DNA of 64,000 nucleotides from an uncultured Thermodesulfobacteriota bacterium (GCA_964387595.1 CAYLYF010000004.1:2139-66138); one strand, 5' to 3'. Shown: positions 16,394 through 34,872, counted from the first letter of the stretch. The notes: generated by a model not told the origin, from the letters alone. Made by a program: numbers and translations.

Positions 16394-17947
16394 ATGAAAA
16401 GGGCAATTTGTTTTAGTCTGGGGTTTGTGTTTTTTATGCTTGCGGCAGAGAGTGCCCTGGCAACGGTGAAACTGTTTGATGAAAAGCTTACTTTAAACGG
16501 TTATGTAAAGGAAGTGGCTTTCTACAGAACCAGCATGCAGGATATGGAGGCGAAATATCATGATACGAACTTTGATTTCTTAAAGACAAGCGCTGGTATT
16601 GAGGCACTCTACAGCATAAAGGAGAGTCAGGATCTGACCATTCGGTTTTTTACGGGGTTAAAATGGTGGTATGAAGCCGCGCCCAGAATTGATGACCAGT
16701 ATGGACGGTCGATGGATCACCGGTTCAAAAAAGATTACGTGACGCCGAGGGATTTTGATGAGGATGTGCTGAATGAGGCATATTTTGATTTTATCAGCGG
16801 TCCCTTTCAGGTCCGAATCGGAAAGCAGATCGTTGTTTGGGGAAACCTTGATGTAGACCGGGCCGCGGATGTAGTTAATCCCGTTGATCTTCGCCACGCC
16901 ATGTTTGGTGTAGACAAGTGGGAAGAATTCAAGCGCGGCATATTTATGATTCGGATGTTCTACCAGACCCAGCTTCCGGGTAATCTCCGCATGGAAGCTA
17001 TATTCAATCCCGGTGATTTTAAACAGGATCTTCTTCCCCTGGACGGCGGTGGTCATTACGGCACGCCGCTCCACCTGAACAATCCATTTGATTCAGATCC
17101 ATCCTTTATGCACTGGCAGTTTGAGAAATCCCGCAGGGATGCGCCGGGGTGGAGCACAAACAACTATGAGTTCGGGTTCAAACTCAGCGGGTATACCTGG
17201 GATATTGACTGGAGCCTGATCTATTATAATTCAATAAACGGTGCTCCTATTATTGATCCCAAAGCTGTCGGACCTTTCATGGAGCAGTATATTTTTGGAA
17301 ATATTCTGCCCTGGCAGGAGGTGGGCGACTGGCCCGGTTACAGGGTTTTTAAATATAAACGGAATCAGATTGTGGGTGGTACTTTTGAAAAATGTATGAC
17401 AAGCGGCGGACTGCTTCGCGGGTCTACCCTTACAGTAGAATGGTATTATGATATCCATTCCCCGTTTAATCTTGGGACCAACGGGGATGCCTCTGCTACC
17501 TATGGAATGATCAGAAAAAACATATTGGGAGGAGCGGTAAAGTTTTATCAGAAATATAATATCCCTGGATTTACCCAAAGCCGGATCTGCACGGGAAAAC
17601 AGTTTGAAATGACCATCACCTATTACTTTGAAAAAATTTTCAAGGATGAGTATGATCTGATTCAGAATACACGCTATCATCGCCGGGGGGATTCTGTGGC
17701 GGATAGTATTTCGGTATTTTGCATGCAGCCGATGTTTAATTATGTCTGGACTTTCGTATTTAACTCCTACTACAAACCCAGAATTGGTAAATGGTTTGTG
17801 ATGCCTGCGGTAAGATATAATTTCCCCGGCAAGCATTGGTCGTTTGAAACAGGTCTCTGCCTTTATGGCGGTGCAAAAAATGACTATACCCACAGTGTTT
17901 ATGAACATAAGGACAGTGTGATATTGAAACTTACCTATGAGTGGTAA
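16394..17947 (+). CDS. DUF1302 family outer-membrane protein
   Basis: It has a signal peptide (MKRAICFSLGFVFFMLAAESALA) after the RBS AAGGAGGG. The ORF-track start at 16373 is upstream of this RBS. It is paralogous to 24700-26268 and is followed by a DUF1329 gene, as is typical. Confidence 0.65.
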   Translation: MKRAICFSLGFVFFMLAAESALATVKLFDEKLTLNGYVKEVAFYRTSMQDMEAKYHDTNFDFLKTSAGIEALYSIKESQDLTIRFFTGLKWWYEAAPRIDDQYGRSMDHRFKKDYVTPRDFDEDVLNEAYFDFISGPFQVRIGKQIVVWGNLDVDRAADVVNPVDLRHAMFGVDKWEEFKRGIFMIRMFYQTQLPGNLRMEAIFNPGDFKQDLLPLDGGGHYGTPLHLNNPFDSDPSFMHWQFEKSRRDAPGWSTNNYEFGFKLSGYTWDIDWSLIYYNSINGAPIIDPKAVGPFMEQYIFGNILPWQEVGDWPGYRVFKYKRNQIVGGTFEKCMTSGGLLRGSTLTVEWYYDIHSPFNLGTNGDASATYGMIRKNILGGAVKFYQKYNIPGFTQSRICTGKQFEMTITYYFEKIFKDEYDLIQNTRYHRRGDSVADSISVFCMQPMFNYVWTFVFNSYYKPRIGKWFVMPAVRYNFPGKHWSFETGLCLYGGAKNDYTHSVYEHKDSVILKLTYEW

Positions 17948-17984
17948 TGACATTTAAAATTCTTTTTGGAAGGGGGATACATTA

Positions 17985-19265
17985 ATGAAAGAAATAAAAA
18001 GACAGCATTATGTTTTTTGCTCCATGATTAGCTGTGTCATTTTACTTGTATTTTTCATATCCACATTGCGGGCTGAAGAAATAGTTTATCCGACTTCAGC
18101 TTATTCCAAAGATGAGCTTGCAAAGGTCAGGGAGTGGGAGAAAAACTGGGCAGGTAAAAACCTCGATAAAACAAACGTTGATCAGGTGGCTGAATTTTTG
18201 CCTGAATCTTATGTGGATATTTATAAAAATCCTGAAAAATGGGGGGCTCCTCCGGGTGAAAACATTACATCGATTCTTGTTCCGTACCAGCAGATCATTG
18301 AAACAAAGGGAATGATCGAAGCAACGAAAAAGTATGCACCTCTGGTTAAGACCAATCTGGACGGGTCCATCGCTAATTATGGTGAAATTGCGGGGGTGCC
18401 TTATCCGGCTCCGAAAACAGGTATTGAGATTGCCTGGAATATGGACTTTAATAACCATGGAGATACAGAGCATTATATGCGGGACGGACCGAACATCAAT
18501 CCGAAACAGAGAACCGAACGGTCCAGCAAGCAGGAGCAATGGTATTTGACTTTCATGCACCGGACTGAAATGGATCCCAAACCGGTACTGCCTACTAAAA
18601 AAGGAATTCTTCGCGGAACCTTTGTTCATATGTATGAACCTCCAGAGTTTATCAATACCCGGTACTATAATTTGAGATTTATGGATACGGCGAAAGATGA
18701 TATGACCTATTTCTGGTATGCCCAGTTCAGGAGAATCAGGCGTTTATCTACCACCCAGCGTACGGATTCGATTGATGGTACGGACCTGATTTATGATGAT
18801 GAATTTTTCTGGGATGGACATATTACCCGGAATACCTATACGCACAAAGGGAAGAAAGATCTTTTATGCTGTCGACACCAGGATGTGTCAAAGTTTAACC
18901 GTCCTAACGGCCAGATTATGTCAAACGACCTGATGCTGGAACGTCTGAACACACTGGTGGTGGATGTGTTCAACAAGGACCCGAGTTATCTATACAGCAA
19001 GCGGATCTGGTATGTTGACCCGGAGACTTATATTATTTTATGGACAGAGATCTACGATCAGAAGGGGCGTTTCTGGAAATGTTTCATGCAAAACACGGGG
19101 AACAATAAAACAGCCCTGGGTGAGACCAAGAACAATATTGTGGGATCGGTCTTTGTGGATTACCAGCGGACTCATGGCGGGCACAGTACAAACAAAATAA
19201 AAGGGGTTTCTGTTGAGCTCGATACCAAGATGTTTTCCATAACGAATCTGCAGAGAACGTACTAA
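17985..19265 (+). CDS. DUF1329 family (LolA-like) periplasmic / outer-membrane protein
   Basis: It is paralogous to 26292-27560. The two share the C-terminus ...NLQRTY and internal blocks (AKVREWEKNWAGK, DDEFFWDGHI). Confidence 0.65.
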   Translation: MKEIKRQHYVFCSMISCVILLVFFISTLRAEEIVYPTSAYSKDELAKVREWEKNWAGKNLDKTNVDQVAEFLPESYVDIYKNPEKWGAPPGENITSILVPYQQIIETKGMIEATKKYAPLVKTNLDGSIANYGEIAGVPYPAPKTGIEIAWNMDFNNHGDTEHYMRDGPNINPKQRTERSSKQEQWYLTFMHRTEMDPKPVLPTKKGILRGTFVHMYEPPEFINTRYYNLRFMDTAKDDMTYFWYAQFRRIRRLSTTQRTDSIDGTDLIYDDEFFWDGHITRNTYTHKGKKDLLCCRHQDVSKFNRPNGQIMSNDLMLERLNTLVVDVFNKDPSYLYSKRIWYVDPETYIILWTEIYDQKGRFWKCFMQNTGNNKTALGETKNNIVGSVFVDYQRTHGGHSTNKIKGVSVELDTKMFSITNLQRTY

Positions 19266-19295
19266 AATCATTAATTAAACAAAGGAGGGTTAGCT

Positions 19296-21278
19296 ATGAG
19301 ACGAAAAGCTTTAAATCAATTTACGGATTTTGTAATGGCAGTTCTGGGCCTGCTCTGTCTGCTTGGCAGTCAGTCGGCTTTTGCTCAGGGTGTAATTGTG
19401 ACAGAAGACCAGACAATTGCAGACAAGTTTACACGGCATACGGTAACTGGTATTACTACACCGCAGCCTGTACTGCCTGACGTTCCCGGATTTATTGGCG
19501 CATCATATATAACTATTGAGGATATCGATGAGAATGGAATATTGGATATTATATCCACCTCGGGAATGGGTCTTGATTCTAATCCAATGACTGCTGACGG
19601 GTCGATCGCTCTTTTTACCTGGGACGGCAGTAACAAGGATGTCTGGGTACAGACAATTATTGAAGATACTTTTTATTTTCCCAATGAAACAATTGTGAAA
19701 GATCTGGATGGAGACGGATATCTTGACATCATTATCATGGACAAGTTTATTTTCGGGGACTTTCCGGGTGGAATTTATTGTCTTAAAAATGGTGGCGGAA
19801 CCATTACCGATCCTTCTAACTGGACACGTGAAACAGTTTTCGAAGATTTATCTCTTGATTCTACACACAGTTATCATCGGGCTCAATTCATTGACCTTGA
19901 TAATGATAACTACGATGATATCGTGACAACGAACTGGGACGGCTGGATTGGCTGGCTGAAAAATAACGGAGATGGAACCTATAATAACGGCACTACCGGG
20001 TATAATAAACATGATATCGGAATCGGGGGTGGTTCTCTTTTTATAATGTATGATGTGGACGAGGATGGCGATCTGGATTTAATCGCTCCTCAGTTTCTTA
20101 TTACAGCAGGGATGATGAGTTGTGAAATTTTAGGCGGGCCATCAGGTACTGACCCGCTAGGTGATTCTCTGGTCTGGTTTGAAAATCCCGGTCTGCTTGC
20201 GCTTGCATCAAATCCTGATGTTCTGTGGAACCGCTATACAATAGATAACTGGTATACTTCTATCAATCCCCTAGGTAAGACAATGGAGATTATGGTTTCA
20301 GATATTGACAATGACGGTACCGATGAGCTGGTGGTCAGTAACCACAACCATCAGAACAGTGATGCAAATGGCAATAGAGTCTGGCCTTCCGGAATATACT
20401 TTCTGGAGATTCCAGGTCTGGGCGGTAACTCCGGCAGTCCGGTAGTTTCTGCTGACTGGGTACCCGTAGCCATTGAGACCGGTGATCCGGATTTAGTAAG
20501 AACGATCAATCCTTCAACCGGCAATTATTATCAGCCGTATGAAGATCCGGCTGTTATTAATGATGTTTATGCATCTGATAGAAGGGGCAGCTTCTATGAT
20601 CAGGGCTCTCCCGGTATGGTTCGTGCCGGTGATATTAATGACGATGATAAAAATGATATTGTAGTTCCCGGAGATGGAAAAGGTGTTGTGTATTATTATG
20701 AAGCCGGTGAAAAGGACGGCGCTAACTTGACTTTTAAAAGGGCTACTCTGTATCAGGATCTTCAGTCCATGCCGGGTGAAGCGGAAATTGTTGATATTGA
20801 CAAAGATGGTGATATGGATATTGTTTCTGTAATTTTTGACACAAGCGTTTCAAAGCTGTATCCGTACACCTCAAGTTCTATTTTTGTTTTTGCACAGAGT
20901 TCACCTTCGGACGGGGATGGTGATGGTGTTCCTGATTCGAATGATAACTGTCCGGATGCAGCCAACCCCGGCCAGGAAGATGCAGATAGTGATGGTGCCG
21001 GTGATGTTTGTGATGCGGATACAATTTATGGAACTATCAGTGGAGATATTCAGGAAGGAGTTACTGTACAGGTTGGTATAGTTAGTTGTGGTATTACTGT
21101 TGTGGTAATTTCGACAGAAACAAATGTAAATGGGTACTATTCATTCGGTGGTTTGGAAGAGGGCCTATACCTCCTTTGGGCTAGCGCTGCTGATTATAGT
21201 TTTGTTCCTACATTTAGCTGGCCGCGTATTCCGCAGGCAGTTATTCAGTCTTATGATTTTATTTCAAGCAATAACTGA
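19296..21278 (+). CDS. secreted FG-GAP / VCBS-repeat protein with a thrombospondin type-3 calcium-binding repeat and a CarboxypepD_reg-like C-terminal domain
   Basis: It has a signal peptide and repeated DxDxDG motifs (DIDENGILDI, DLDGDGYLDI, DVDEDGDLDL). There is an exact TSP3 signature (DGDGDGVPDSNDNCPDAANPGQEDADSDGAGDVCD). The C-terminal beta-sandwich reads VGIVSCGITVVVISTETNVNGYYSF. Confidence 0.65.
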   Translation: MRRKALNQFTDFVMAVLGLLCLLGSQSAFAQGVIVTEDQTIADKFTRHTVTGITTPQPVLPDVPGFIGASYITIEDIDENGILDIISTSGMGLDSNPMTADGSIALFTWDGSNKDVWVQTIIEDTFYFPNETIVKDLDGDGYLDIIIMDKFIFGDFPGGIYCLKNGGGTITDPSNWTRETVFEDLSLDSTHSYHRAQFIDLDNDNYDDIVTTNWDGWIGWLKNNGDGTYNNGTTGYNKHDIGIGGGSLFIMYDVDEDGDLDLIAPQFLITAGMMSCEILGGPSGTDPLGDSLVWFENPGLLALASNPDVLWNRYTIDNWYTSINPLGKTMEIMVSDIDNDGTDELVVSNHNHQNSDANGNRVWPSGIYFLEIPGLGGNSGSPVVSADWVPVAIETGDPDLVRTINPSTGNYYQPYEDPAVINDVYASDRRGSFYDQGSPGMVRAGDINDDDKNDIVVPGDGKGVVYYYEAGEKDGANLTFKRATLYQDLQSMPGEAEIVDIDKDGDMDIVSVIFDTSVSKLYPYTSSSIFVFAQSSPSDGDGDGVPDSNDNCPDAANPGQEDADSDGAGDVCDADTIYGTISGDIQEGVTVQVGIVSCGITVVVISTETNVNGYYSFGGLEEGLYLLWASAADYSFVPTFSWPRIPQAVIQSYDFISSNN

Positions 21279-21303
21279 AGAAGTTTAGACTTGATATTTT
21301 TTT

Positions 21304-21340
21304 AAAAAAGGCAGGGTTTTTCCCTGCCTAGCTTTCTTTT
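21304..21340 (+). terminator. rho-independent terminator (GGCAGGG-TTTTT-CCCTGCC followed by a T-rich tract)
   Basis: A hairpin plus U-run lying 26 nt after the stop of the FG-GAP gene. Confidence 0.6.
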
Positions 21341-21692
21341 TCAATTTGAGATGAAGGCCGCAGGGCGGGATGAAGAAAATATACAAAAAAAGGGTTTAAT
21401 TCCTGAAGGACAGAAAGACAGAAGCCTTGAAATGATTCCCAAAAAGTTTAACTGGCCAAAAATAACTCCTGATAAAATGATATTGCTTGATGTGAAACCA
21501 GGGGCATATCCTCTTCAAAAGATATGGGAACCGGGCTCTGCAACTATTCGAAATTATGCCGGATGATCGAACTGAAATGCATGTTCTAGCCTCTGATAAA
21601 ACACCGGACTCTCTGGGCGAAGATTTTAAATGGGAAACGAACCGATTTTATAAAAAACCCCAGTCGCTATATCTTGAAAGAAGGAGATAATA

Positions 21693-22502
21693 ATGTTTGT
21701 CGTAATTGTTAAATATACTTTTCTGGTTCTGATGTCTATCATTTTACTTGCTGTTCTGGCGGCAATACCCTTTAGGATCAAAGCCCGGAAAGAGGGGGAT
21801 CGGCTTTATTCCCGGTATGAATCCTATACCAATGAAGTTCTGGCGCAGCGTTTCGAATTGCATGAATTTTCAGTTAAAGCGGAATACAGAAAACTTCATC
21901 CTGCCAAATTTTTAAAGACCATGAAATTTCTGGTAATCAGCCGGCAAAGTGATCGTCTTGCCCGGATTAATTCTCTGGATGCCACCCTGTTTTATTTTAT
22001 AAAAATGTATACCCTGATGCTCCGGCCTGATTATGCCTACAATCTGCCGGTCCTTTCCATTGATTTCATTTTTATCGGCGGAAAGCGGGTCTATGTTATT
22101 GAAATAATTGATCCGGCCAGGATCGATGATTCCAACAAGGAGCGATACTATGCAGAGATGAAAAAATGGATGCCGCAGGTTGCAAAATTCAAACAATCCA
22201 AAGTCAGTGACTGGTTTTTTGACTATATTACGGATTTTAGCATCCATATCTCTGCTGATCGTGCTGATGATGAGTTGCTGTTTGAGATTTACAAAACCTA
22301 TCTGAATGCTTATCTGGACATGGCTGAACATGCAGAAAAAGTCAGCCCTGAACAGAGCCAAAAGCTTAAAGCGGGTCTGGAGAAATTTGTCACGACTCTA
22401 CTTGACAAGGGCGGTCCGGCTGTAAATGTGTTTGAGAAATTTATGGGGCCTGAAAAACAGCGGGAATATATACGGACGGTTATGTTTGGTCTTGAGAAAT
22501 AA
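21693..22502 (+). CDS. ferredoxin-dependent bilin reductase (FDBR, Fe_bilin_red)-like protein with an N-terminal transmembrane helix (putative)
   Basis: RPDYAYNLPVLSIDFIFIGGKRVYVIEIIDP aligns with the FDBR core block (PebA [32 protein letters not shown]). The C-terminal VFEKFMGPEKQREYIRTVMF resembles the FDBR C-terminal F..FG..W/E....F motif. Confidence 0.4.
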   Translation: MFVVIVKYTFLVLMSIILLAVLAAIPFRIKARKEGDRLYSRYESYTNEVLAQRFELHEFSVKAEYRKLHPAKFLKTMKFLVISRQSDRLARINSLDATLFYFIKMYTLMLRPDYAYNLPVLSIDFIFIGGKRVYVIEIIDPARIDDSNKERYYAEMKKWMPQVAKFKQSKVSDWFFDYITDFSIHISADRADDELLFEIYKTYLNAYLDMAEHAEKVSPEQSQKLKAGLEKFVTTLLDKGGPAVNVFEKFMGPEKQREYIRTVMFGLEK

Positions 22503-22644
22503 CCGAAGTTAAGGAACTTGTCTGTGAGTAATCAGGTTTTTGTATCATTGAATAATAATGCATGGATTGGGAAAGTGTTGAAGTTTTGTGCTTTCTTTGT
22601 TTGTACTATAAACAGTTTTTATAAATAGCTTGGAGGAATAAAAC

Positions 22645-23916
22645 ATGAACTACGATATTGCAATTGTTGGCGCAGGGCCGGCAGGGCTGATGGCAGCCAA
22701 AAGAGCTTCGGAACAGGGATTGAAAGTGGTCCTGATTGAAAAAAGAAAAGATATCTCAAAAATTACCCGGGCCTGCTGTCAGTTTTTTATTATGGATGAG
22801 GACTTCCAGGGAGAGACCATCCGGATCGAAGATAACAGCGTTGTTTTTAACCAAAACAAATTTGAAGTGGCCTACAGCGGCCCGCTTCTGTCCGTGACAG
22901 ATAAATACTTTATTTCACCCGGGGGGCATAAAATTCATTTTGCCCATGAGGATAAAAAACCACTGGTAATCAAGTTTGATAAGGGGCAGTTGCTGCATGG
23001 CCTGCTGGAGGACTGTGTGCGCCTGGGGGTTGAATTTTTAAATGCATCGAAAATAAAAAGTATTGAAGACCGTGACGATAAAATATCTATAAGTTTAACC
23101 CGGGGGAATGGTGAAGAAAAACTTACAGCCAAAAAACTGGTGATTGCAGACGGGGTGAATACGCCTGCAGCCGAGATGCTGGGACTCAACAGCGGCAGAG
23201 CTCTTTTTACAAAAGTGCTGGTAACCGTATCCACTCTGGAAGGGGTAAAGAATTTTGAGCCGGCCACCCTGAAAAGTTATATGGGAGCCGCCTACCGTTC
23301 TTTTGCGCCTGTAATCATGGGCCCTGCTTTTGGTAGTGATGACATGCGGTATCTGGTGCTGATCGGGACTAAGGAGCGAAGGCCGGAAAAACTGTTTGAA
23401 GAAATTACCATGAATAGCCCGCTTAAACCCATGTTTGAAAATGCCCGGATTGTAAAAAAGGCCGCCTGTACGGCAACCGCCTACAGTTCAATGAAGGTCC
23501 CTCATCGTGGAAATGTTCTGGTGATCGGAGATGCGGCTGCATATGTTGAAGTGGAGACTCAGGGAGCGCTGACCTGCGGTTATCGGGCAGCAGATGCGGT
23601 TTTTGATGAGATTGAGAATAAAAAAGGATTTGAAGCGTATACAAAATGGTGGCAGGACTCCTTTGAGTTCAACGGGGATGATTACCTGCAGGTAGCGCAG
23701 GGGTTTGCTCTTGTGCCGACTTATACGGATGACGAGCTTGACTATCTTTTCGCGCTGATTGAAGGGGAAAGACTGGAAGGGACGTATAACCAGTACAAAT
23801 CACCGAAAGTGATGTGGGGAGCAATACTTAAGCATCGTGAAAGAATTTCACTTGAACGTCCGGCACTTATCAAGAAAATAGACAGTAGAAAACTGTTGCT
23901 TTCGGATTCTTTGTGA
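22645..23916 (+). CDS. FAD-dependent oxidoreductase, geranylgeranyl-reductase-like (paralog of 9248-10576)
   Basis: MNYDIAIVGAGPAGLMAAKRASEQGLKVVLIEKRKDISKITR. It is co-linear with its paralog along the whole length. Confidence 0.7.
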   Translation: MNYDIAIVGAGPAGLMAAKRASEQGLKVVLIEKRKDISKITRACCQFFIMDEDFQGETIRIEDNSVVFNQNKFEVAYSGPLLSVTDKYFISPGGHKIHFAHEDKKPLVIKFDKGQLLHGLLEDCVRLGVEFLNASKIKSIEDRDDKISISLTRGNGEEKLTAKKLVIADGVNTPAAEMLGLNSGRALFTKVLVTVSTLEGVKNFEPATLKSYMGAAYRSFAPVIMGPAFGSDDMRYLVLIGTKERRPEKLFEEITMNSPLKPMFENARIVKKAACTATAYSSMKVPHRGNVLVIGDAAAYVEVETQGALTCGYRAADAVFDEIENKKGFEAYTKWWQDSFEFNGDDYLQVAQGFALVPTYTDDELDYLFALIEGERLEGTYNQYKSPKVMWGAILKHRERISLERPALIKKIDSRKLLLSDSL

Positions 23917-24156
23917 AACATGTCGGATTTTCAGATAAATAAAAAATCTGTCAGACATTGAACTTATTATTTGATGAGCTGTGAAGATGTAAATACCGTT
24001 TGCCGATAGCGGATTAGAATAAAACTGCTTAATCATAATTGACGGTATCTGCACAGGTTTTTATTTTTGATTTTTTAGATTAACTCGTAATCCATATGGA
24101 ATAATATATAAAGGAAGTAAGATAATTAAGAAAAACAAAAAGAATCAAAAAAATAG

Positions 24157-24168
24157 TTGACTTGTCAA
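24157..24168. promoter_or_regulatory. Palindromic box TTGACTTGTCAA (MarR-type operator candidate). It overlaps a -35 element, with -10 TATGTT 16 nt downstream.
   Basis: One of four TTGAC-N2-GTCAA sites. The others are at 24281, 33188 and 33444. Confidence 0.45.
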
Positions 24169-24280
24169 TTGAGAGTGCTATGTTTTATTCAAGAATCAAA
24201 AACTTGGTTTAAATACCTGAATTTTAAATAAATAAAAAGGGCAAATAATTAATTAAAGCAAGGAAATTCAAAACATATAG

Positions 24281-24292
24281 TTGACATGTCAA
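24281..24292. promoter_or_regulatory. Palindromic box TTGACATGTCAA, within a tandem duplicate of the promoter/operator unit
   Basis: The 24141-24200 and 24263-24330 units share ATAGTTGACNTGTCAATTG ... TTTTATTCA. Confidence 0.45.
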
Positions 24293-24541
24293 TTGTATAT
24301 TAGTCTTTTATTCAGTGAATTTTATGTTTTTATTTGAGCGCTTCCCGGGCAACTGCAGACTCAGACCTGTGATTATTTTAAATAACAAAATCCTGAATAT
24401 ATCTATTTGTCAGAGAGGCGGCGCTGAGTTGTCTTTCCGATGATCGGCATTGGTGTTTCCGAATCTCTTTAAAAGAATGATCCTTGCGGATCAATAAGCC
24501 TCTGATGAGCAGAGAGGAAAGGGAGTAAAGTTTATAAAAGA

Positions 24542-24655: not shown

Positions 24656-24699
24656 ATTGTTTTTCATTATATAACATAATCTTTGAGAAAGGAGGAGGC

Positions 24700-26268
24700 A
24701 TGAAAAACAAATTTAAGCAAAAAGGAGGAGTCTTCTTTTTGGCAGCACTTGTTTTTTTTGGGCTATGCGGAAAGGCCGGGGCGACAATTTCTCTGTATGA
24801 CGGAAAGCTGATATTAAGTGGTTTTGCCAAAGAAACAGTGTATGTGCGAACCGACCAGTCAAAACGTGAGCAGGAGTACAGGGATACGGCACTGGATTTG
24901 GCTAAAACGAGTCTCTACATTGAAGCACTGTATACCCTCAGAGAGTGCCCTGATCTGACGGTGCGAATGTTTACAAGCGTTAAGTGGTGGTATGAGTCAA
25001 CTTCAGGTTTTCTGGATGACAATCAGAGACGACACATTCTCCACCGACACCGTAAGCAATATACTTCGCCCCGAAAATTTGATGATGATATTTTAACGGA
25101 AGCTTATGTTGATATTATTAAAGGACCCTTTCAAGTCCGTCTGGGCAAGCAGATCGTTATCTGGGGTCAGCTGGATGTAGATAAAGTTGCCGATGTGGTT
25201 AACCCGATTGATTTCCGCTGGAATGTGCCGGGGATTGATGCCTGGGAAGAAATAAAAAAGGGACTGTGGATGGTTCGTATGTTCTACCAGACTGATTTGC
25301 CCGGAAATATACTTTTAGAAGGTATTTTTAACCCGGGATACTTTCAGGAGTTCCGGCTTCCCTATGATGGAACACACTGGGGGGTTCCCTATGACGAGCC
25401 TTTTGGCGCTTCAGGTATGACGATATTTGGATGGCAGCAGGAGAAGATGCACCGGGATGCCCGAAGATGGAGTCTGAGCGAAAACTATGAGTGGGGATTC
25501 AGGATCCGGGGGTATTCTCTGGGTATTGACTGGACTTTGCTTTTTTGGAATGCCCCTTCAGACAGTCCGACAGCTGATCCCCGGCGCCTGGGTGATTTCA
25601 GTATGCAGTATGTGTCGGGTGCTTTAGGCGCTGCGATCTTCGGAGGGTCTATCAATCCGGGCAACTGGCCGGAATACAAGGTGTACCGGTATAAACGGCT
25701 TCAGACCTTCGGCGGTACGGCCCAGTACTGTGCCGATTGGCTTCATGGCTCGATCTGGCGTCTGGAATGGTTTTACAACAAAGGGCAGCCCTTTAACCGG
25801 GGAGGAAGGGGAAGTGTTTCTGATATAGATGGCTGGACACGCCGAGATACCTATGGATTTGCAGTCTCCTGCTCTGACAAGTTCCGCCTTCCGGGTGTGA
25901 GCAACACTATCGGGCGGGGTAAGATGCTTGATGTGACGTTGACCTTTTTCTGGGATAAAATCAGGGATAACAACCATGATCTTTATAAAAGTGCCTTGAA
26001 TCACCGGCCCGGTGATTCAACGACTGAAGGGTTTTCAATTTTTCTCATGCAGATGATGTTCAGCGGAGAGTGGACTTTTACTTTTATCGGAAATTACAAG
26101 CCTCGCATCAACAAATATTTCGGCTGTCCGACTATGACCTATTCCTTTTCGGGAAGCCACTGGTATATGGATATAGGCTATAAATTTTACGGTGCAAGGC
26201 ACGGTTATAATTACGGTTCTTATCATGATAAAGATGCGGTCATATTCCGGCTGCGTTATGAATTCTAG
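24700..26268 (+). CDS. DUF1302 family outer-membrane protein (paralog 2)
   Basis: The likely start is at ATG 24700, after GGAGGAGG (MKNKFKQKGGVFFLAALVFFGLCGKAGA signal peptide). The ORF-track start at TTG 24646 lies inside the leader element. Confidence 0.6.
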   Translation: MKNKFKQKGGVFFLAALVFFGLCGKAGATISLYDGKLILSGFAKETVYVRTDQSKREQEYRDTALDLAKTSLYIEALYTLRECPDLTVRMFTSVKWWYESTSGFLDDNQRRHILHRHRKQYTSPRKFDDDILTEAYVDIIKGPFQVRLGKQIVIWGQLDVDKVADVVNPIDFRWNVPGIDAWEEIKKGLWMVRMFYQTDLPGNILLEGIFNPGYFQEFRLPYDGTHWGVPYDEPFGASGMTIFGWQQEKMHRDARRWSLSENYEWGFRIRGYSLGIDWTLLFWNAPSDSPTADPRRLGDFSMQYVSGALGAAIFGGSINPGNWPEYKVYRYKRLQTFGGTAQYCADWLHGSIWRLEWFYNKGQPFNRGGRGSVSDIDGWTRRDTYGFAVSCSDKFRLPGVSNTIGRGKMLDVTLTFFWDKIRDNNHDLYKSALNHRPGDSTTEGFSIFLMQMMFSGEWTFTFIGNYKPRINKYFGCPTMTYSFSGSHWYMDIGYKFYGARHGYNYGSYHDKDAVIFRLRYEF

Positions 26269-26291
26269 AATTAGGAAGGAGAGATTATTTT

Positions 26292-27560
26292 ATGAAAGTA
26301 ATAAATCACAAATTATGGCTTAACGGGCTGGCTGTATGGGCAGTATTATGGGCAGGTATTGTTTCAGCGGCGGAAATTGATTATCCGGTTGCAGCTTATT
26401 TCGGAGAGGAGCTTGCAAAGGTCAGGGCCTGGGAAAAAACATGGGCCGGCAAAAAGATCGACGGAAGCAATATTGATCAGGTTGCCGAGTTTTTGCCCGA
26501 ATCATTTGCCGGGATGTATAAAGAACCGGAAAAGTGGGCAGCTCCAGAAGAAGGTCTTTTTTTTAATATTGTTCCTTATCAGCGGGTTATGGACACTCAG
26601 GGCATGATTGATGCGACCCAAAAAAATGCGCCACTTGTTAAGACCAATGATGACGGAACCATAGTGAATTATGCGGGGCTGGCCGGGATCCCTTATCCGA
26701 CACCGAAAACAGGACTTGAAATTGCCTGGAACTTTGATTCTACCAATCATGGAGACAGCGCGCATTACAAACGGAATTCTCCCAATATTAACCCGAAAAC
26801 CCGGTCGGAGCGGTTTGGCGATCAGGAGCAATGGGAACTGTATTTTGTTCACCGTACAGAACTTGATCCTAAACCCCAAATTCCAAAGAACCCGAAGGGG
26901 TATCATCGCGGAACTTTTATCCATATGTGGGGTCCGCCGGAGTTCATGAATACGCGTTATTTCTCGATGCGGTTTATAGATCCGAAAAAAGATGATTCCA
27001 TGTATATGTGGTACCAGGCCTTTCGGCGCATCCGGAGAATGTCCACAAAACAACGTTCAGACGCGGTTGATGGAACAGACCTTATTTATGATGATGAGTT
27101 CTTTTGGGATGGTCATATTATGCGCAACACCTATGAATTTAAAGGCACCAGAGAACTGCTCTGCTCTCGTCATCAGGATATGAAAAAAGTAAGCCGCGCA
27201 ACCGGTCAGATTGTGCCCAATAACCTGGATCTGGAGCGGACAAAGCTGCTGGTTGTTGAAGTCATAAATAAAGACGCTAATTATATATATGGAAAGCGGG
27301 TCTGGTATGTGTGCCCGGAGACCTACATTATTCGCTGGACGGATATATATGATGAAAAGGGACGTTTCTGGAAGACCTTTGCCATGTTTACAAATGATGT
27401 AAAAACAAAAACCGGCGCTGTTAAAAATTTTATAGTGGGGTATTCGCTTATAGATTTTCAGCGAACTCACGGCGGGTATAATATCCAGGATATCCAGGGT
27501 ATCAGTATTGATGTGAACCCGAAAATTTTTACGATCAGTAATCTGCAGAGAACGTATTAG
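26292..27560 (+). CDS. DUF1329 family protein (paralog 2)
   Basis: It has a signal peptide and is co-linear with 17985-19265. Confidence 0.65.
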   Translation: MKVINHKLWLNGLAVWAVLWAGIVSAAEIDYPVAAYFGEELAKVRAWEKTWAGKKIDGSNIDQVAEFLPESFAGMYKEPEKWAAPEEGLFFNIVPYQRVMDTQGMIDATQKNAPLVKTNDDGTIVNYAGLAGIPYPTPKTGLEIAWNFDSTNHGDSAHYKRNSPNINPKTRSERFGDQEQWELYFVHRTELDPKPQIPKNPKGYHRGTFIHMWGPPEFMNTRYFSMRFIDPKKDDSMYMWYQAFRRIRRMSTKQRSDAVDGTDLIYDDEFFWDGHIMRNTYEFKGTRELLCSRHQDMKKVSRATGQIVPNNLDLERTKLLVVEVINKDANYIYGKRVWYVCPETYIIRWTDIYDEKGRFWKTFAMFTNDVKTKTGAVKNFIVGYSLIDFQRTHGGYNIQDIQGISIDVNPKIFTISNLQRTY

Positions 27561-27630
27561 TAATCAATTTCAATTAAAAATCGTTTTTATGGCTTTTTTA
27601 AATTGAAATTGATTCAGGAGGAAATGAAGT

Positions 27631-29718
27631 ATGGACAAAAAACCAAAAAACACGTTTATTACAGCCTGTCTTTTTTTGGCGGTTTTATTAGCCTTAACAG
27701 TTGTTTGTTCTGCTGATGCGCAAACAGTTCCTCCAGCGATTGAAAGCATAACAGCAGAAGACAACTCAATCTGGGAAAGGGTATCAACGGAAGGGTTCGG
27801 TAATTCCAATAATATCGGAATCAGTGCTTTGTGCGCGTATAATGATAATTTGTATGCCCTGACACGAAATGATGTTGAAGGGTTTCAGCTGTGGCAGGCC
27901 GGAACAGCCGGCTGGACCCGGCTGAGCATACCGGGTTTTACTGACAGCGTGCGTCAGCCTTTTTTAAACGGCGGTTACAGTGCCATGACTGTTTTTGACA
28001 ACAGGCTGTATGTGGCGGTTGGTTCCGGGTATGAGGGAGACATGCTTTTCCGCTCTGTCGGCCTGGAAATCTGGCGCTTTGACGGGACAGTCTGGCAGGC
28101 CGTGATCAGTGATGCAAGAAGTGATGGCCAAAAAGAATCCGGGCAGATTACATCTCTGAGCGATTGCGCTGCTGATGATACGGCCATGACTGCGCTGGTT
28201 TCTGACTCAACCAAGGCCTGGACAGTTAACCAGTGGGCCGGAGGTGTGCTGAAGATATCATCCGGTGACGGTGCGGGCCGGGTTTTTGATATTATCAGCA
28301 ATGATAATACGACTTTAACCATTCAGCAGAATGAGGCGGCAACAGAGGATGAATATACGATTTGCGCTTCTTTTGCGCCGGATGCAGACCGCTCGGAGAT
28401 GACCGTTGGCTCGGTTGCTCAGAGTGACAGCTATCTTGTGACGCTGGGCTGGAAAGCAAACGGTTTTGGAGAGATCTGGAACAAGAATCTTATTGGCTTT
28501 GAAGAATACCAGGGCCGTCTGTATCTTTCTGTCGCGCTAAATTATGCGGACGGGACCCGGGTTTGGCGAAGTTCCGACGGTCTTGAGTGGGAGCCGACTT
28601 CAGAGTACAGTTTTGGTCTGATGCATGGTTATGATATGGACGGGGTTGAAACCGGTTTTTGTTTGGTAGACGGTTATGAATACCGTAATGGCGGTCCGGT
28701 TTGTTCCAGCGCCACATATCTGCATGCCAGTGATGTGACGGGTACGGAAAGCCTGTTCGCGGGCGGAACCGGTTCGACCGGCTGCAATGGCCGAGGGGCA
28801 AGGGTATTAAAATATGACGGAACGGAGTGGGCGTTTTTAGTTGATTATTTTGTAGATACTGATGATGAGGGTACGAATGAAAACGGGCTTGGCGATGCAG
28901 CCGATTTTTTAAGCGCTAATTTTCAGGCCTGGTCCTGGGCGGATTATGATGACCATCTTTTTCTCGGTATCGCCCGGACAATTGGCAGCCGAATCATGTA
29001 TACTGCGACAGGAGACACGGCCAATGATTCATGGAAATATGCTGTGGGCGGTGACGGGCCGATGCCGGATGGTTTTGACGGGGCCGGTGGGCTTCTGGGA
29101 TATGGAAGGGGACTGGGATCTCATCTGTATACATATAATAATGCGTTGTGGGCAGCCTGTTTTGTAAACGCGGCTGTTGCAGGCTTACCGTGGAAACTTG
29201 ATGGGGCAGATATCTGGCGGGCAACCGGGTCAGCGGACGCTTTGGTTTGGACGCGGATAACGGACAACGCCTTCGGCAACCGGGGAATTATTACCTTTGG
29301 CAATCCTGTTGAATTTGACGATACCCTGTATGTTGGGGGTTCAAATATTTTTGGAAACTTTACGGAAAACGCTGCTCCAGACGGAAATGGATGTCTGGTT
29401 TTCAGGCTGGCCAGCCGTTCAGACTGGATCGATCTTGACAGCCTGGATGCAGACGAGAAGAAGTTTTTCATAGACCTGTCTTGGACGGTGGATACTTCAT
29501 CGACGATTAATGGATATAATGTGTATGTATCACGTAATTCTGATATGCTTTTTAAACGAAAGTTAAACCTGAGCCTGATTGAAGATACCAGTTTTATCCA
29601 CGGCATTGTATGGCCGGGAAGCAAGTGGTGGTATGTGATAGAAGCGGTCGGATCAGATGGTAAAACAGCAGTTTTTGGGCCAGTCCCATCGACGGCAAAG
29701 AAATTTTTTGAAAACTGA
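27631..29718 (+). CDS. secreted beta-propeller-like repeat protein with a C-terminal fibronectin-III-like domain
   Basis: It has a signal peptide (MDKKPKNTFITACLFLAVLLALTVVCSADA). Internal Trp/Gly-rich repeats recur (LYALTRND..GFQLWQAG, LYVAVGSG..LEIWRFDG). The C-terminus reads YNVYVSRNSDM...WWYVIEAVGSDGK. Confidence 0.4.
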   Translation: MDKKPKNTFITACLFLAVLLALTVVCSADAQTVPPAIESITAEDNSIWERVSTEGFGNSNNIGISALCAYNDNLYALTRNDVEGFQLWQAGTAGWTRLSIPGFTDSVRQPFLNGGYSAMTVFDNRLYVAVGSGYEGDMLFRSVGLEIWRFDGTVWQAVISDARSDGQKESGQITSLSDCAADDTAMTALVSDSTKAWTVNQWAGGVLKISSGDGAGRVFDIISNDNTTLTIQQNEAATEDEYTICASFAPDADRSEMTVGSVAQSDSYLVTLGWKANGFGEIWNKNLIGFEEYQGRLYLSVALNYADGTRVWRSSDGLEWEPTSEYSFGLMHGYDMDGVETGFCLVDGYEYRNGGPVCSSATYLHASDVTGTESLFAGGTGSTGCNGRGARVLKYDGTEWAFLVDYFVDTDDEGTNENGLGDAADFLSANFQAWSWADYDDHLFLGIARTIGSRIMYTATGDTANDSWKYAVGGDGPMPDGFDGAGGLLGYGRGLGSHLYTYNNALWAACFVNAAVAGLPWKLDGADIWRATGSADALVWTRITDNAFGNRGIITFGNPVEFDDTLYVGGSNIFGNFTENAAPDGNGCLVFRLASRSDWIDLDSLDADEKKFFIDLSWTVDTSSTINGYNVYVSRNSDMLFKRKLNLSLIEDTSFIHGIVWPGSKWWYVIEAVGSDGKTAVFGPVPSTAKKFFEN

Positions 29719-29817
29719 TAAAGGTTGTATTTCTTGATCGGAAGCGTGACGCGCATACGCCAAGTCCTGGAGTGAAGTTAAGTAATATGTATGCAAAATA
29801 ATCCGGATTAATTTAAG

Positions 29818-29859
29818 CGATACCCCCCTCAGCCTGCTGTGGGGGGTATTCTTGTTTTA
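29818..29859 (+). terminator. rho-independent terminator (GATACCCCCC ... GGGGGGTATT followed by CTTGTTTT)
   Basis: A hairpin with a U-rich tail, about 100 nt after the stop of the beta-propeller gene. Confidence 0.55.
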
Positions 29860-30104
29860 TAATTATTTTCCAGGAAGAGGAGGGTTTGGGGGATGAAAAT
29901 ATTAAATAAGGAGTAAGCTTTTTATGTTTTTAATCACGATAACGCAACCAGATATCTCTCCAGTTGAAAACGAGTACACTGCCGCAGTTTTTCTCATCAC
30001 ACCTACAGCTTAAGCTTTCAGTGGTTAAAGTAAAAAGATAATTGCTATCGCTTTTTCCTTCTGGTTTTATAATAACGTAATAGCTGATGGCGCAGAGTGG
30101 GTTT

Positions 30105-30185
30105 TATGGGCCGGGCATTCAGGGTATCCGTATTTATGTGAATCCGAAAGATTTTACGGTCAGTAATCTGCAGAGGACGTACTGA
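30105..30185 (+). pseudogene. Remnant of the 3' end of a DUF1329 gene (...GIQGIRIYVNPKDFTVSNLQRTY*)
   Basis: About 80 nt, near-identical to the last 25 codons of 26292-27560 (IQGISIDVNPKIFTISNLQRTY) and similar to 19200-19265. There is no upstream ORF. Confidence 0.7.
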
Positions 30186-30211
30186 TGTAATTGCCTTTCA
30201 TGGGATCAATT

Positions 30212-30259
30212 AAAAACGGTCTCAGACCTTCTGTGCAGAAGGTCTGAGACCGTTTTTAT
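30212..30259. terminator. Bidirectional terminator, a perfect palindrome AAAAACGGTCTCAGACCTTCTG-TGCA-CAGAAGGTCTGAGACCGTTTTT
   Basis: A 17-bp stem flanked by A5 and T5, lying between the DUF1329 remnant (+) and the 3' end of the minus-strand lipoprotein gene. Confidence 0.75.
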
Positions 30260-30262
30260 ATA

Positions 30263-30928
30263 TTATTTCAGGAGTGCTTCTATAACCGGGAGAGTCGCAT
30301 TGATCATAACTTCAGTCAACGATTTAAGAGCCGGATGAGAGATGATGATATCGTTCATGGATCTTGCGTTATCATAATAGCTTTTTATAATTGCTTTTCC
30401 AACGGCATTTTCCGCAAGGACTTCATCCCTGAACCGGTGAAGGGTATCCAGCCGTGTATCGCCTTCCCCTAAAACAGTTCTGGCCGGGCAGACGGGATCG
30501 TCGCCATCGTCAGTGCAGTCCTGCTTGATTGCCTGTGCAATCGGGTAAGCCGGAGTTTCACCCGTGTATTTTGTAAGAGTGCATCCGGAGAATGTGAAAA
30601 GGCTTGCCGGCATGGACTCATCAAGATCTCCCAGATCCTCAGTATACATATATTTTGTTCCCGCAAACACTCTGGGGTATATTCTAAAGGGAACCGGGTC
30701 TTCACCTTCAGATGTGCTGTTTCCGGAAGTATAGCAGGGAAACATAGAGCTGTCGCGCTCCGTGGTTTCTGTGATTACCCAGGTTGCGGTGCTGCTATCA
30801 TCATATGTGACATCCCAGGTGCCGACCATAAAGTCACAGTCCTGAGCCGACACGGCTCCTGATAAAAATAGAAAAAATAAAATAGTACCCAAAGCAAGTT
30901 TTTTCATAACGGTAGCCTCCTTCATCAT
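30263..30928 (-). CDS. hypothetical lipoprotein. Its C-terminal ~60 aa are shared with the FG-GAP paralog.
   Basis: It has a signal peptide plus lipobox-like sequence (MKKLALGTILFFLFLSGAVSAQDC). Its C-terminal TRLDTLHRFRDEVLAENAVGKAIIKSYYDNA matches ENLETVRVFRDKVLLSSQGGRSMVALYYKHA of 30953-33037. Confidence 0.5.
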   Translation of the reverse strand: MMKEATVMKKLALGTILFFLFLSGAVSAQDCDFMVGTWDVTYDDSSTATWVITETTERDSSMFPCYTSGNSTSEGEDPVPFRIYPRVFAGTKYMYTEDLGDLDESMPASLFTFSGCTLTKYTGETPAYPIAQAIKQDCTDDGDDPVCPARTVLGEGDTRLDTLHRFRDEVLAENAVGKAIIKSYYDNARSMNDIIISHPALKSLTEVMINATLPVIEALLK

Positions 30929-30952
30929 AATTAATGTTGTTTAAAAAGGTTT

Positions 30953-33037
30953 TTATTTCAATACAGAACAGGCAGAATTAATATGCCCGCTGTCTGCAAT
31001 GCTATCCAGACGTTTATGGTTGTTTGAGAAACCGTGTAGACTGAAGATTTCATTACCAGTTCGGGTAATTATTTTAGAGCAGTCTTTTTTTAAGTCTAAA
31101 CCGGCATGTTTTGATAGTTCTTTAATCAGCTCAATTCCCTGCTGGATAACTGCTAGAGGAAATACTGTAGCATGGTTTTCTTGCGTTCTTTTTATCTCCG
31201 GAATAAGGGTGCTCAGCAGGTTCCTGGCCTTTGTTTTCAGCTGGGGTTCTCTGAGAAGAATGCCGATGATTTCAGCCGCATGTTTATAATACAGCGCAAC
31301 CATTGATCGACCACCTTGAGAAGATAAAAGGACCTTGTCCCGGAAAACTCTTACAGTTTCTAAGTTTTCCTGCTGTCCGCTCATTAACATACTGATGGGG
31401 CATAACTGTGAAGTTTTGTTTTCGTAGACAAAAATTGAGCCTGAAGAACTGTCTTTATCTACACTGGTATCGTATATGGTTGCGATTATATCCAGGTCAC
31501 CATCACCATCGATATCATAAATATCAGGTTCTCCCGGCATGCATGCCGGATCTTTGTACAGGGCAGCACGTTTAAAGGCCAGGCAGTCATCCTCAAGGCC
31601 TTGTGATTCGTAATAATATACAGCTCCCTTTCCGTCACCCGACACAACCAGATCCGGAAGGCCGTCACCTGAGATATCAGCTGCCTTGACAGCCGCAGGG
31701 GATCCCTGGGAGTAGGCTCCTCCGGGACGGTCAACAGCAAAGGGGTCTGCAGCTACCGCCTCGTCGTCATCTGGATCCAGTTCCGGATTTCCGGAATCTA
31801 TGGTGATTGGATTCCAGTTTTCTGTAACTTGAGGATTGTCCGGAACATTAAAGTAGTAGATACCCGAAGGCCATACTCTGTTATCGCTTTTATAGTCCTG
31901 ATGATTATGGCTTGTAATGAGTATTTCATCATCCGAATCATCATCAATATCCGAACAGAATACGTCAAATCCTTTGCCAATGGGGTTTGACGATTTATAC
32001 CAGTTTTCTATGGTATAACGGTTCCACGGCTGTTTAAGAACCGATACACCTGATGTCCTGCCCGGATTTTCAAACCAGGAAAGGGTATCCCCTCTTATAT
32101 CTGATCCGTCCAGCCCCCCTTTGACAATCAGGGTCCCCGGATTTGTGATCAGGAACTGAGGTGCCAGAACATCAAGGTCGCCGTCTTTGTCTACATCAAA
32201 AAAAGCTATAAAAAAACCGCCTCCCTCACCGATTTCATAAGGGCCGGAATATCCCGAGGGAAAGGTTTCCCTGTCTGTTTCCCGTCTGAACCACTCTACC
32301 CATCGGTACTGCTGATCTGTTTTCTGCCAGTACCACATGTGGGATTTTGTGGTGACGAAGTCCTCCAGTCCGTCGCCGTCTATATCATGGAATTCTGCTT
32401 TATGATAGGTCTCGATACCATCTGTACAGTTATCCGACGAGCATGGACATTTTCCATTTATTTCCCCTTGAAAAATGATCTGTTTTTTCCAATTTTCCGG
32501 ATCGGTGATATCTCCTCCGTTGTTTTCCAGATAATATATGCCGGAGACTCCGCAGGTAGACCACGCGGCCAGGTAGTTGTCCATGACCATAATATCTATG
32601 TCGCTGTCATTATCCATGTCCCTCAGCACCATGTCATTTGGGAAGGAAAAGGTATCGTTAATAATGGTCTGAGTCCAGGCGTCAAGGTTTGAGCCGTTCC
32701 AGGTAAATACTGCGATGGCCCCGTCAAAAATATTAAAATCAACAGATTGTCCCATCAGAGAGGAACAGACCACTTCAGGGATGCTGTCCTGATTCAGATC
32801 ACCCACAGCAACAAAGCCGGGTGCTTTGTAACCGGGGACATCGGGTTTCACCGGCAGCGGTGTTTTTATGCCGGTAATTGTGTGTCGAACAAATTTTAAT
32901 GACAGCAATGGGTCTTTGGAAATATTGACACACTGAGCGGTTGCAGTAGATAGGCTGAACAGTATTGTACACAAACAAAAACAGGCTGCACAAGACTCTT
33001 TTCGAACAAAAAAAGCATAAATGTTACTTTTTTTCAT
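30953..33037 (-). CDS. secreted FG-GAP / VCBS-repeat protein (paralog of 19296-21278) with a different, alpha-helical-looking C-terminus
   Basis: Its N-terminal two-thirds are co-linear with 19296-21278 (FVRHTITGIKTPLPVKPDVPGY versus FTRHTVTGITTPQPVLPDVPGF; DIDGDGDLDI repeats). It has no TSP3 repeat. Confidence 0.65.
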   Translation of the reverse strand: MKKSNIYAFFVRKESCAACFCLCTILFSLSTATAQCVNISKDPLLSLKFVRHTITGIKTPLPVKPDVPGYKAPGFVAVGDLNQDSIPEVVCSSLMGQSVDFNIFDGAIAVFTWNGSNLDAWTQTIINDTFSFPNDMVLRDMDNDSDIDIMVMDNYLAAWSTCGVSGIYYLENNGGDITDPENWKKQIIFQGEINGKCPCSSDNCTDGIETYHKAEFHDIDGDGLEDFVTTKSHMWYWQKTDQQYRWVEWFRRETDRETFPSGYSGPYEIGEGGGFFIAFFDVDKDGDLDVLAPQFLITNPGTLIVKGGLDGSDIRGDTLSWFENPGRTSGVSVLKQPWNRYTIENWYKSSNPIGKGFDVFCSDIDDDSDDEILITSHNHQDYKSDNRVWPSGIYYFNVPDNPQVTENWNPITIDSGNPELDPDDDEAVAADPFAVDRPGGAYSQGSPAAVKAADISGDGLPDLVVSGDGKGAVYYYESQGLEDDCLAFKRAALYKDPACMPGEPDIYDIDGDGDLDIIATIYDTSVDKDSSSGSIFVYENKTSQLCPISMLMSGQQENLETVRVFRDKVLLSSQGGRSMVALYYKHAAEIIGILLREPQLKTKARNLLSTLIPEIKRTQENHATVFPLAVIQQGIELIKELSKHAGLDLKKDCSKIITRTGNEIFSLHGFSNNHKRLDSIADSGHINSACSVLK

Positions 33038-34798: not shown

Positions 34799-34872
34799 CA
34801 GACTGTTACAGGGTGCTGGTTTTAAAAATTGAATCGAAGATAACAAAAAAATATAGTCTGGAGGAAAAAATA

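Follow-up and report, generated by a model that had tools for sequence, protein, structure and literature searches.

The 64,000-nucleotide (nt) stretch of DNA analysed here (the window) comes from an uncultured Thermodesulfobacteriota bacterium (GCA_964387595.1, CAYLYF010000004.1:2139-66138) and represents a catabolic island of an anaerobe, a sulfate-reducer-type bacterium. It harbors two modules built around a DUF1302/DUF1329 gene pair. These pairs are probably anciently diverged copies, each accompanied by a different exported propeller: the FG-GAP protein FG_1 in module 1 and an unannotated protein, which we call prop, in module 2, where prop would have been inserted later at the end of DUF1329_2. 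Beyond prop lies a fossil of the DUF1329_2 3' end, followed by a bidirectional terminator and the convergent operon of a second FG-GAP gene (FG_2) and the gene p221. Throughout the text L001 to L084 label the related loci or contigs compared with the window, and domains were called with Pfam, at its gathering cut-off (GA), and with the NCBIfam cut-offs.

The module layouts proposed in an initial annotation stand: the Pfam matches for DUF1302, DUF1329 and FG-GAP are above GA, module 1 is co-directional and FG_2 lies on the minus strand. Judged by its spacing, module 1 is a tight three-gene operon, with 37 nt between DUF1302_1 and DUF1329_1 and 30 nt between DUF1329_1 and FG_1, and the arrangement is kept in L014 at 95%, 84% and (for FG_1) 77% identity. 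This contig (JABMQA010001069.1) is labelled ‘Bacteroidetes bacterium’, a label that is probably wrong and probably due to mis-binning. DUF1329_1 has orthologues in L014 (84%) and L082 (76%), and DUF1329_2, which begins 23 nt after DUF1302_2, has orthologues in L007 (80%) and L016 (79%). Between the modules, identity is 44% for DUF1302 and 60% for DUF1329. DUF1302_1 is a predicted outer-membrane beta-barrel—a structure known from homologues in the literature—with an N-terminal hydrophobic, signal-like segment, and such segments are found in all eight envelope proteins of the region.

The last ~87 nt of DUF1329_2 form the live copy of a direct repeat whose other copy is the fossil. A repeat search pairs 27474-27556 with 30099-30181 (83 nt, 81% identical, 2,625 nt apart), blastn aligns the fossil with DUF1329_2 at 87.7% identity over 65 nt (E = 3e-17) and tblastn places DUF1329_2 residues 370-422 on 30024-30182 (E = 1.6e-5), so that the ~80-nt fossil of the initial annotation is real when the alignment is properly scored. 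In-register identity over 30-nt blocks moving upstream is 83, 83, 63 and 37%; over the next 93 nt in that direction identity is just 42% (shuffle p = 0.0007), so that ~90 nt can be counted as solid fossil, with a possible weak extension to ~160 nt. Its best DNA match is the window’s own DUF1329_2 (87.7%, versus 76-78% for the L007 and L016 orthologues); DUF1329_1 and 52 other DUF1329 copies match it less well than DUF1329_2, and it retains a lineage-specific NLQRTY ending. With nine nonsynonymous and five synonymous codon differences, and in-frame stops upstream, the fossil is to all appearances a dead fragment under relaxed constraint. The bidirectional terminator follows directly after the fossil, which itself follows prop’s own terminator; it is as perfect as had been claimed, with 23-bp arms flanked by A and T runs (dG -38 and -36.5 kcal/mol on the two strands). 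The closest FG_2 loci, L081-L084, yielded no homologue of either the fossil or its spacer.

The FG_2-p221 operon keeps its orientation among relatives. It is divergent from MarR-SDR-Fer4/FDBR-FDBR (FDBR, ferredoxin-dependent bilin reductase) in the window and equally in L064, L065, L067, L081, L082 and L084, which all have the MarR/FG_2 divergent pair. The closest FG_2 orthologues are 75-81% identical over the propeller core, and p221 orthologues (54-72% identical) directly follow FG_2 in L066, L081, L082 and L083. The L081 operon, divergent from MarR-SDR-FDBR, has no DUF1302 or DUF1329 in the 13 kb fetched; L082 has only a module 1 orthologue (DUF1329, 76%), followed by a small STAS-like open reading frame (ORF) and not by FG_1. 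L016 carries GGred_1, DUF1302_2 and DUF1329_2 in this order (73% and 79% identity for the pair), then TetR-AOR-SDR (AOR, aldehyde:ferredoxin oxidoreductase), without prop or FG_2.

Propellers and their partners across related loci

No Pfam or NCBIfam family matches prop. Its AlphaFold2 (AF2) model (pLDDT 88, pTM 0.89) comprises about seven four-stranded blades, an inserted beta subdomain and a C-terminal Fn3-like beta-sandwich, and a Foldseek search of the model against the PDB returned generic propellers only. The locus thereby exposes a large family (156 homologue clusters) that lacks a Pfam or NCBIfam model and has informative fusions: to alpha/beta-hydrolases (including chlorophyllase-type Pfam matches), TSP3 repeats, CFI-box domains and FG-GAP propellers. 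The closest prop orthologues (68-77% identical) adjoin FGE-sulfatase genes or a transposase, and none has DUF1302 or DUF1329 nearby; the FGE-sulfatase-family genes stand next after prop in L059 (7303-8421) and L061 (10166-11317). DNA homology with the prop orthologues ends at the coding region, so the ends of the inferred insert cannot be mapped in that way. An identical DUF1329_2 occurs in 47 indexed blocks of the assembly collection, with prop as the next gene in all six places shown. Two variants alter the spacers: in L005 an IS66-family element (L005 13750 onward) sits at 30041/30042, just upstream of the fossil, and in L003 a 40-nt indel lies between DUF1329_2 and prop (27561-27630). The spacer is therefore plastic in the population.

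FG_1 and FG_2 are 42% identical over the N-terminal ~540 aa only, and their C-termini differ. FG_1 ends in a TSP3-like Asp-rich repeat (residues ~537-580) and a CarboxypepD_reg-like domain, its TSP_3 match (PF02412) of 23.1 bits falling just below the GA of 25, and FG_2 has no TSP_3. The C-terminal domain of FG_2 is helical and includes a CFI-box region with a borderline NF041770 score (39.8 bits, cut-off 40) that resembles the corresponding region of p221 (E = 1e-7); a literature search on ‘CFI-box’ found nothing. The best Foldseek folds for the AF2 model of FG_2 (pLDDT 85) are the propeller of aldos-2-ulose dehydratase (AUDH), ITFG2, integrin alpha and CRTAC1. The FG-GAP family is sharply bounded, with ~85 clusters at 41% identity or more and then a gap, and is confined to deltaproteobacterial-type metagenome-assembled genomes (MAGs).

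Sequence searches of the PDB gave nothing significant for DUF1302_2, prop, the FG-GAP profile, the unk251 profile (unk251 is an unannotated cytoplasmic protein of 251 aa) or DUF1329_2 alone; a two-sequence DUF1329 profile gave a weak LolA-like match (3bk5, E = 0.0074). Profile-profile tests detected no homology among prop, FG-GAP and BNR propellers; a common role after DUF1329, if they have one, would make them analogues.

Co-occurrence was counted from both sides. A genome scan with the DUF1329 alignment yielded 52 loci, all from MAGs, several of which contribute two to six loci, and neighbors were counted as homologues within the fetched flanks. The labels are nearly all Thermodesulfobacteriota, delta-proteobacteria or Proteobacteria; L012 (CAIVED010000039.1), whose DUF1329 is 61% identical, bears the label ‘uncultured archaeon’ and is probably mis-binned. 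The DUF1302-DUF1329 pair is near-universal among these loci. Its other neighbors are MMPL (23/52), a Ycf48/BNR propeller (22), FDBR-family proteins (13), GG-reductase-like enzymes (10), SDR (10), PNPOx (9), alpha/beta-hydrolases (9), FAD_binding_4/CCG proteins (7), an FG-GAP core (3; L010, L014 and L025) and prop (1). A PSII_BNR propeller comes directly after DUF1329 in 10/44 loci, with MMPL next where the sequence reaches (five loci). BNR and MMPL are absent from the fetched flanks of all 16 loci with a DUF1329 that shares 57.7% identity or more with the window copies, whereas most loci with a more distant DUF1329 carry both; the window itself has no tblastn match to the lineage’s BNR protein and no MMPL/RND gene. 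By this comparison, both modules belong to a subclade without a linked BNR or MMPL partner.

From the FG-GAP side, a metagenome scan gave 17 loci, of which one (L066) has DUF1329 nearby and six have a prop-family gene adjacent or fused. Overall, prop and FG-GAP are adjacent or fused in at least eight other loci. Open-frame checks bear out fusions in both orders, prop-FG in L010 (6892-10743) and L074/75 and FG-prop in L072, L076 and L077; in L066 and L083 the two are separate adjacent genes within a wholly co-directional series, DUF1329-unk251-prop-like-FG_2-p221. In L010 a gene for a 1,032-aa hybrid PAS-histidine kinase with a receiver and a sigma-54 activator (3241-6339) stands between DUF1329 and the fusion gene, and the DUF1329 genes of L066 (2980-4173) and L083 (5956-7200) have no upstream DUF1302. 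The co-directional order of L066 and L083 indicates that the same gene set has been shuffled between genomes, which supports a functional linkage and not the inversion that had been proposed. In terms of gene neighborhoods, prop is the most regular partner of the FG-GAP family and FG-GAP an occasional neighbor of DUF1302/DUF1329; we infer that prop and FG-GAP proteins act as functional partners in these other loci, where they are adjacent or fused. These counts do not support two earlier statements, that the beta-propeller gene of module 2 is ‘unrelated’ and that the pair is consistently coupled to FG-GAP proteins and to GG-reductase-like enzymes.

How the arrangement may have arisen

The reading that we prefer starts from an island prone to rearrangement, in which both pairs would have become unlinked from the Ycf48/BNR propeller and the MMPL-type RND transporter, and in which the gene after DUF1329 encodes a different Sec-exported propeller in each module, FG-GAP in module 1 and prop in module 2. 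DUF1329_2 would formerly have ended at the bidirectional terminator that it shared with the convergent FG_2-p221 operon. A segment of ~2.5 kb that brought in prop together with a ribosome-binding site and a terminator of its own would then have been inserted there, duplicating ~90-160 nt of target, after which selection would have maintained the copy belonging to the gene and the second decayed to the fossil. Such a structure could result either from Campbell-type integration of a circular intermediate or from replication-based duplication. Functionally, the exported propellers (and, in relatives, the fused esterases) may act in the envelope on a substrate of low solubility, binding or processing it, the DUF1302/DUF1329 pair would move it across the outer membrane and periplasm, and the flavin-, Fe-S- and CoA-dependent enzymes of the island would transform it in the cytoplasm; an RND partner, if needed, would be encoded elsewhere.

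Several findings weigh against this account. No pre-insertion allele, with DUF1329_2 abutting the terminator, was found, and the assemblies shown to have an identical DUF1329_2 carry prop; the insertion is thus inferred and not observed. The nearest prop-less locus in which DUF1329 is convergent on an FG_2-like gene (L025) is distant, at 56% and 53% identity, and its intervening gene, considered as a p221 homologue, proved unrelated on comparison. Close orthologues within the subfamily of the window’s prop are not next to FG-GAP, and the FG-GAP-linked props are only 42-45% identical to it, which makes its partnership with FG_2 an extrapolation.

The initial annotation had pictured a different history, in which a three-gene operon DUF1302-DUF1329-FG-GAP was duplicated en bloc, the FG-GAP gene of module 2 was inverted or cut off by an unrelated insertion and the fossil marks the old junction. 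In its favor, module 1 and its L014 orthologue have precisely this organization, each of the three gene families has paralogues in the two modules, and L066 and L083 have a co-directional series; we nevertheless regard this history as unlikely. The orientation of FG_2-p221 to MarR-SDR-FDBR is unchanged in the six loci named above, all from relatives that lack module 2, an FG-GAP core is near just 3/52 DUF1329 loci, and what adjoins the fossil is the terminator of the convergent operon and not the start of an FG-GAP gene. DUF1329_1 and DUF1329_2 are, moreover, closer to orthologues in other MAGs (76-84%), most of them without FG-GAP in their flanks, than to each other (60%), so that any en-bloc duplication would be old and mostly erased. 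What survives of the earlier proposal is a junction of another kind, between the DUF1329_2 3' end and the terminator common to the FG_2 operon, and the insertion, which prop orthologues in unrelated contexts favor; the inversion of FG_2 does not agree with the conserved orientation.

An equally improbable origin, in our estimation, is that the fossil is the remnant of a third, separate DUF1329 gene that stood before the terminator and was mostly deleted, instead of a target duplication. More of a gene may once have stood there, given the weak in-register similarity that continues ~90 nt further upstream (42%, p = 0.0007); the island is plastic, with an IS66 element in one variant, and relatives have several DUF1329 copies per island, some of them convergent (L016, L015, L028 and L050). 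Yet the best DNA match of the fossil is DUF1329_2 itself and not DUF1329_1 or the 52 other copies, the fossil is directly oriented and immediately flanks the prop segment, and the stretch from 29719 to 30024 shows no remnant of a DUF1302 and no further 5' DUF1329 sequence. The neighborhood could also be incidental, with prop, FG-GAP and p221 having a role of their own, such as adhesion or extracellular hydrolysis, and having been shuffled within a crowded island. The low co-occurrence in both directions (3/52 and 1/17), the unrelated contexts of the prop orthologues and the variety of genes found next to DUF1329, on its downstream side, in relatives (SDR, TetR, FAD enzymes, hydrolases, ferrochelatase-like) leave this a possible, if doubtful, explanation; set against it are the short distance (30 nt) between DUF1329_1 and FG_1 and their single downstream terminator, an arrangement kept in L014, the canonical design of a propeller in the slot after DUF1329, and the exported CFI-box hydrolases that adjoin DUF1302/DUF1329 in L034, L036, L037, L047 and L051. 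On the preferred account, later insertion of prop, the fossil would be a dated scar of that event and of local interest only; the prop family and the FDBR-rich island are the more intriguing leads.

The surrounding island and its possible substrate

The features between the start of module 1 and the MarR gene are collected in Table 1. Upstream of module 1 lie genes for a TetR regulator, a GlcDEF-like trio (two FAD_binding_4 proteins and a CCG/Fe-S protein), unk251, a PNPOx-like protein, a GG-reductase-like flavoenzyme, an FMN reductase, a type III CoA-transferase, an Amidohydro_2 protein, a thiolase and a Flavodoxin_5 protein. Downstream of FG_2 follow MarR, SDR, a ferredoxin-FDBR fusion, a further FDBR-family protein, AOR and a sulfatase. 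The sulfatase-domain protein (686 aa, 39368-41428) has an N-terminal membrane region and is encoded 9.6 kb downstream of prop. The enzyme GGred_1 scores 82.7 bits against TIGR02032, below the cut-off of 158.8, and is accordingly called GG-reductase-like only; a paralogue at 9248-10576 is 42% identical to it.

Table 1. Features of the two modules and adjoining genes, in window coordinates (ORF, open reading frame).
Feature	Position	Strand	Remarks
DUF1302_1	16394-17947	+	PF06980, 51.6 bits (GA 23.2); longest ORF from 16373; also a gene call in L001
DUF1329_1	17985-19265	+	PF07044, 119 bits (GA 23.1); PF17131, 35.8 bits (GA 30); LolA-like, signal peptide
FG_1	19296-21278	+	PF13517 (FG-GAP_3), 54.9 bits (GA 26.9); exported seven-blade propeller
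Terminator-like hairpin	21309-21329	.	closes the module 1 operon
FDBR-family protein	21693-22502	+	PF05996, 63.6 bits (GA 31); N-terminal hydrophobic segment
GGred_1	22645-23916	+	GG-reductase-like FAD enzyme; TIGR02032, E = 3.6e-23
DUF1302_2	24700-26268	+	PF06980, 78.3 bits (GA 23.2); longest ORF from 24646 (TTG); gene call
DUF1329_2	26292-27560	+	PF07044, 136 bits (GA 23.1); PF17131, 43.2 bits (GA 30)
AT-rich hairpin	27562-27614	+	DUF1329_2-prop spacer; dG -15.8; site of the 40-nt indel in L003
prop	27631-29718	+	695 aa; exported beta-propeller
prop terminator hairpin	29819-29850	+	dG -23 kcal/mol
Fossil of DUF1329_2 3' end	30099-30185	+	stop codon included; weak similarity back to ~30024
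Bidirectional terminator	30211-30258	.	arms 30211-30233 and 30236-30258, 100% complementary
p221	30263-30928	-	NF041770 (CFI-box-CTERM), 41.0 bits (cut-off 40); small exported protein
FG_2	30953-33037	-	PF13517, 64.2 bits (GA 26.9); exported seven-blade FG-GAP propeller
MarR-family regulator	33477-33926	+	divergent from FG_2

Rfam families have no match anywhere in the window, and a sigma-54 promoter search gave fewer matches than expected by chance. Perfect TTGAC-NN-GTCAA palindromes occur upstream of module 2 at 24157-24168, where one overlaps a -35/-10 match, and at 24281-24292; copies with one mismatch lie in the divergent spacer between FG_2 and MarR at 33188-33199 and 33443-33454. These sites may serve the MarR or the TetR regulator as operators, a suggestion that comes from their placement alone, the motif not being enriched across the window (4 found versus 2.1 expected).

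By their architecture, the GlcDEF-like trio (within 3019-7476) and the type III CoA-transferase (11378-12703) recall the ‘Magic’ cluster, which is highly expressed and has been proposed for anaerobic benzene activation in Desulfobacterota ORM2a. The presence of three FDBR-family genes is unexpected in the catabolic island of a strict anaerobe. The FDBR-family protein next to module 1 has direct sequence matches in the PDB to PebB (6e-8), PcyA (2e-6) and PebA (5e-5), and the other two (34789-35874 and 35893-36600) score 46.4 and 39.2 bits against PF05996 (GA 31). Genes for unk251 occur in the window (7510-8265), L066 (4279-5022), L083 (7297-8061) and L068 (9901-10635). The window copy has no Pfam match; the L083 homologue gives a faint match to coproporphyrinogen oxidase (CPOX; E = 0.004), an enzyme with the same fold as FDBR (PMC10151467). 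Ferrochelatase-like proteins of ~480-516 aa are encoded directly after DUF1329 in L021 (7074-8624) and L023 (4268-5710) and by the third gene downstream of DUF1329 in L022 (12668-14125).

The FDBRs, the HemG-type flavodoxin, the ferrochelatase-like genes and the faint unk251 signal suggest a tetrapyrrole- or bilin-like substrate. The GG-reductase-like enzymes fit the idea of an isoprenoid, and the ‘Magic’-like genes resemble in architecture those of a benzene degrader; the data do not discriminate among these possibilities. With regard to the lipid- or isoprenoid-like substrate of the initial annotation, the bilin-reductase-like genes argue against a simple lipid. As a long shot, the island might be an apparatus dedicated to a pigment-like hydrophobic substrate, either a bilin or a chlorophyll-derived tetrapyrrole with a phytyl ester, which it would capture, import and reductively break down under anaerobic conditions. 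Release and binding of the substrate would fall to the exported prop and FG-GAP double propellers and to the prop-fused esterases of relatives, and its import to DUF1302/DUF1329 pairs working without RND; the ring and the isoprenoid tail would then be handled by FDBR-like, GG-reductase-like, HemG-type flavodoxin and ferrochelatase-like enzymes. If true, this would be a previously unknown route of anaerobic tetrapyrrole turnover in sediments.

Comparison with known systems

The three island proteins above the PF05996 threshold resemble the bilin reductases PcyA, PebA, PebB and pre-PcyA, and one of them matches by sequence, with an Asp that aligns with the Asp of the LDLV stretch of the template. 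Unlike pre-PcyA (PMC10151467), the window’s FDBRs are accompanied by AOR, SDR and MarR and not by haem oxygenase, BBAG or V4R genes, and they differ from known FDBRs in that one copy is fused to a 2x[4Fe-4S] ferredoxin domain and another has an N-terminal membrane segment. The FG-GAP proteins share with integrin-alpha-type FG-GAP/VCBS propellers (the AUDH N-domain, CRTAC1 and ITFG2) the seven-blade fold and Asp-rich DxDxDG-type loops (Foldseek E 5e-11 to 1e-7), but they are only 10-14% identical to them, have TSP3-like/CarboxypepD_reg-like or helical CFI-box C-termini and can be fused to prop.

DUF1302/DUF1329 pairs occur widely, and their mutants show clear phenotypes on hydrophobic substrates, yet no mechanism has been defined for them. 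In the canonical set they stand with a Ycf48/BNR propeller and a COG1033/MMPL RND transporter, as in AmeABCD of Castellaniella defragrans, Sama_1588-1591, PP_0765/0766 with PP_2018/2019 and the ‘Nanopod’ cluster of the benzene degrader ORM2a. DUF1302 is described as an 18-strand barrel and a predicted DUF1329 binder (PMC13499233), and the predicted binding partners of DUF1329 include the BNR propeller and the RND transporter (PMC10866462). Mutants of homologous systems fail on Tween 20, monoterpenes or phenanthrene, and the pairs are among the most highly expressed proteins of an anaerobic benzene degrader. The system is therefore not undescribed, as had first been supposed. The window agrees with the AmeABCD type in its adjacent DUF1302 and DUF1329 genes with predicted signal peptides, in the exported beta-propeller gene right after DUF1329 and in its setting in a catabolic island for hydrophobic or cyclic compounds, and its lineage also has a full canonical AmeABCD-type set. 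It departs from that type in that its propellers are FG-GAP or prop and not Ycf48/BNR (hhalign probabilities 0.1% and 9%), are about twice the size of BNR and have extra C-terminal domains, and in that no MMPL/RND gene lies within the 64 kb, a point on which P. putida offers a precedent by encoding its RND partner elsewhere. What is new here is the propeller substitution together with the unlinking of the RND transporter, in a design of DUF1302/DUF1329, propeller and RND that had already been described. The locus shows that the pair, which has expanded to several copies per genome in Thermodesulfobacteriota, is separable from its usual propeller and RND partners and able to precede wholly different exported propellers; this suggests that the pair is a reusable import core, the substrate specificity of which may reside in its accessory proteins.

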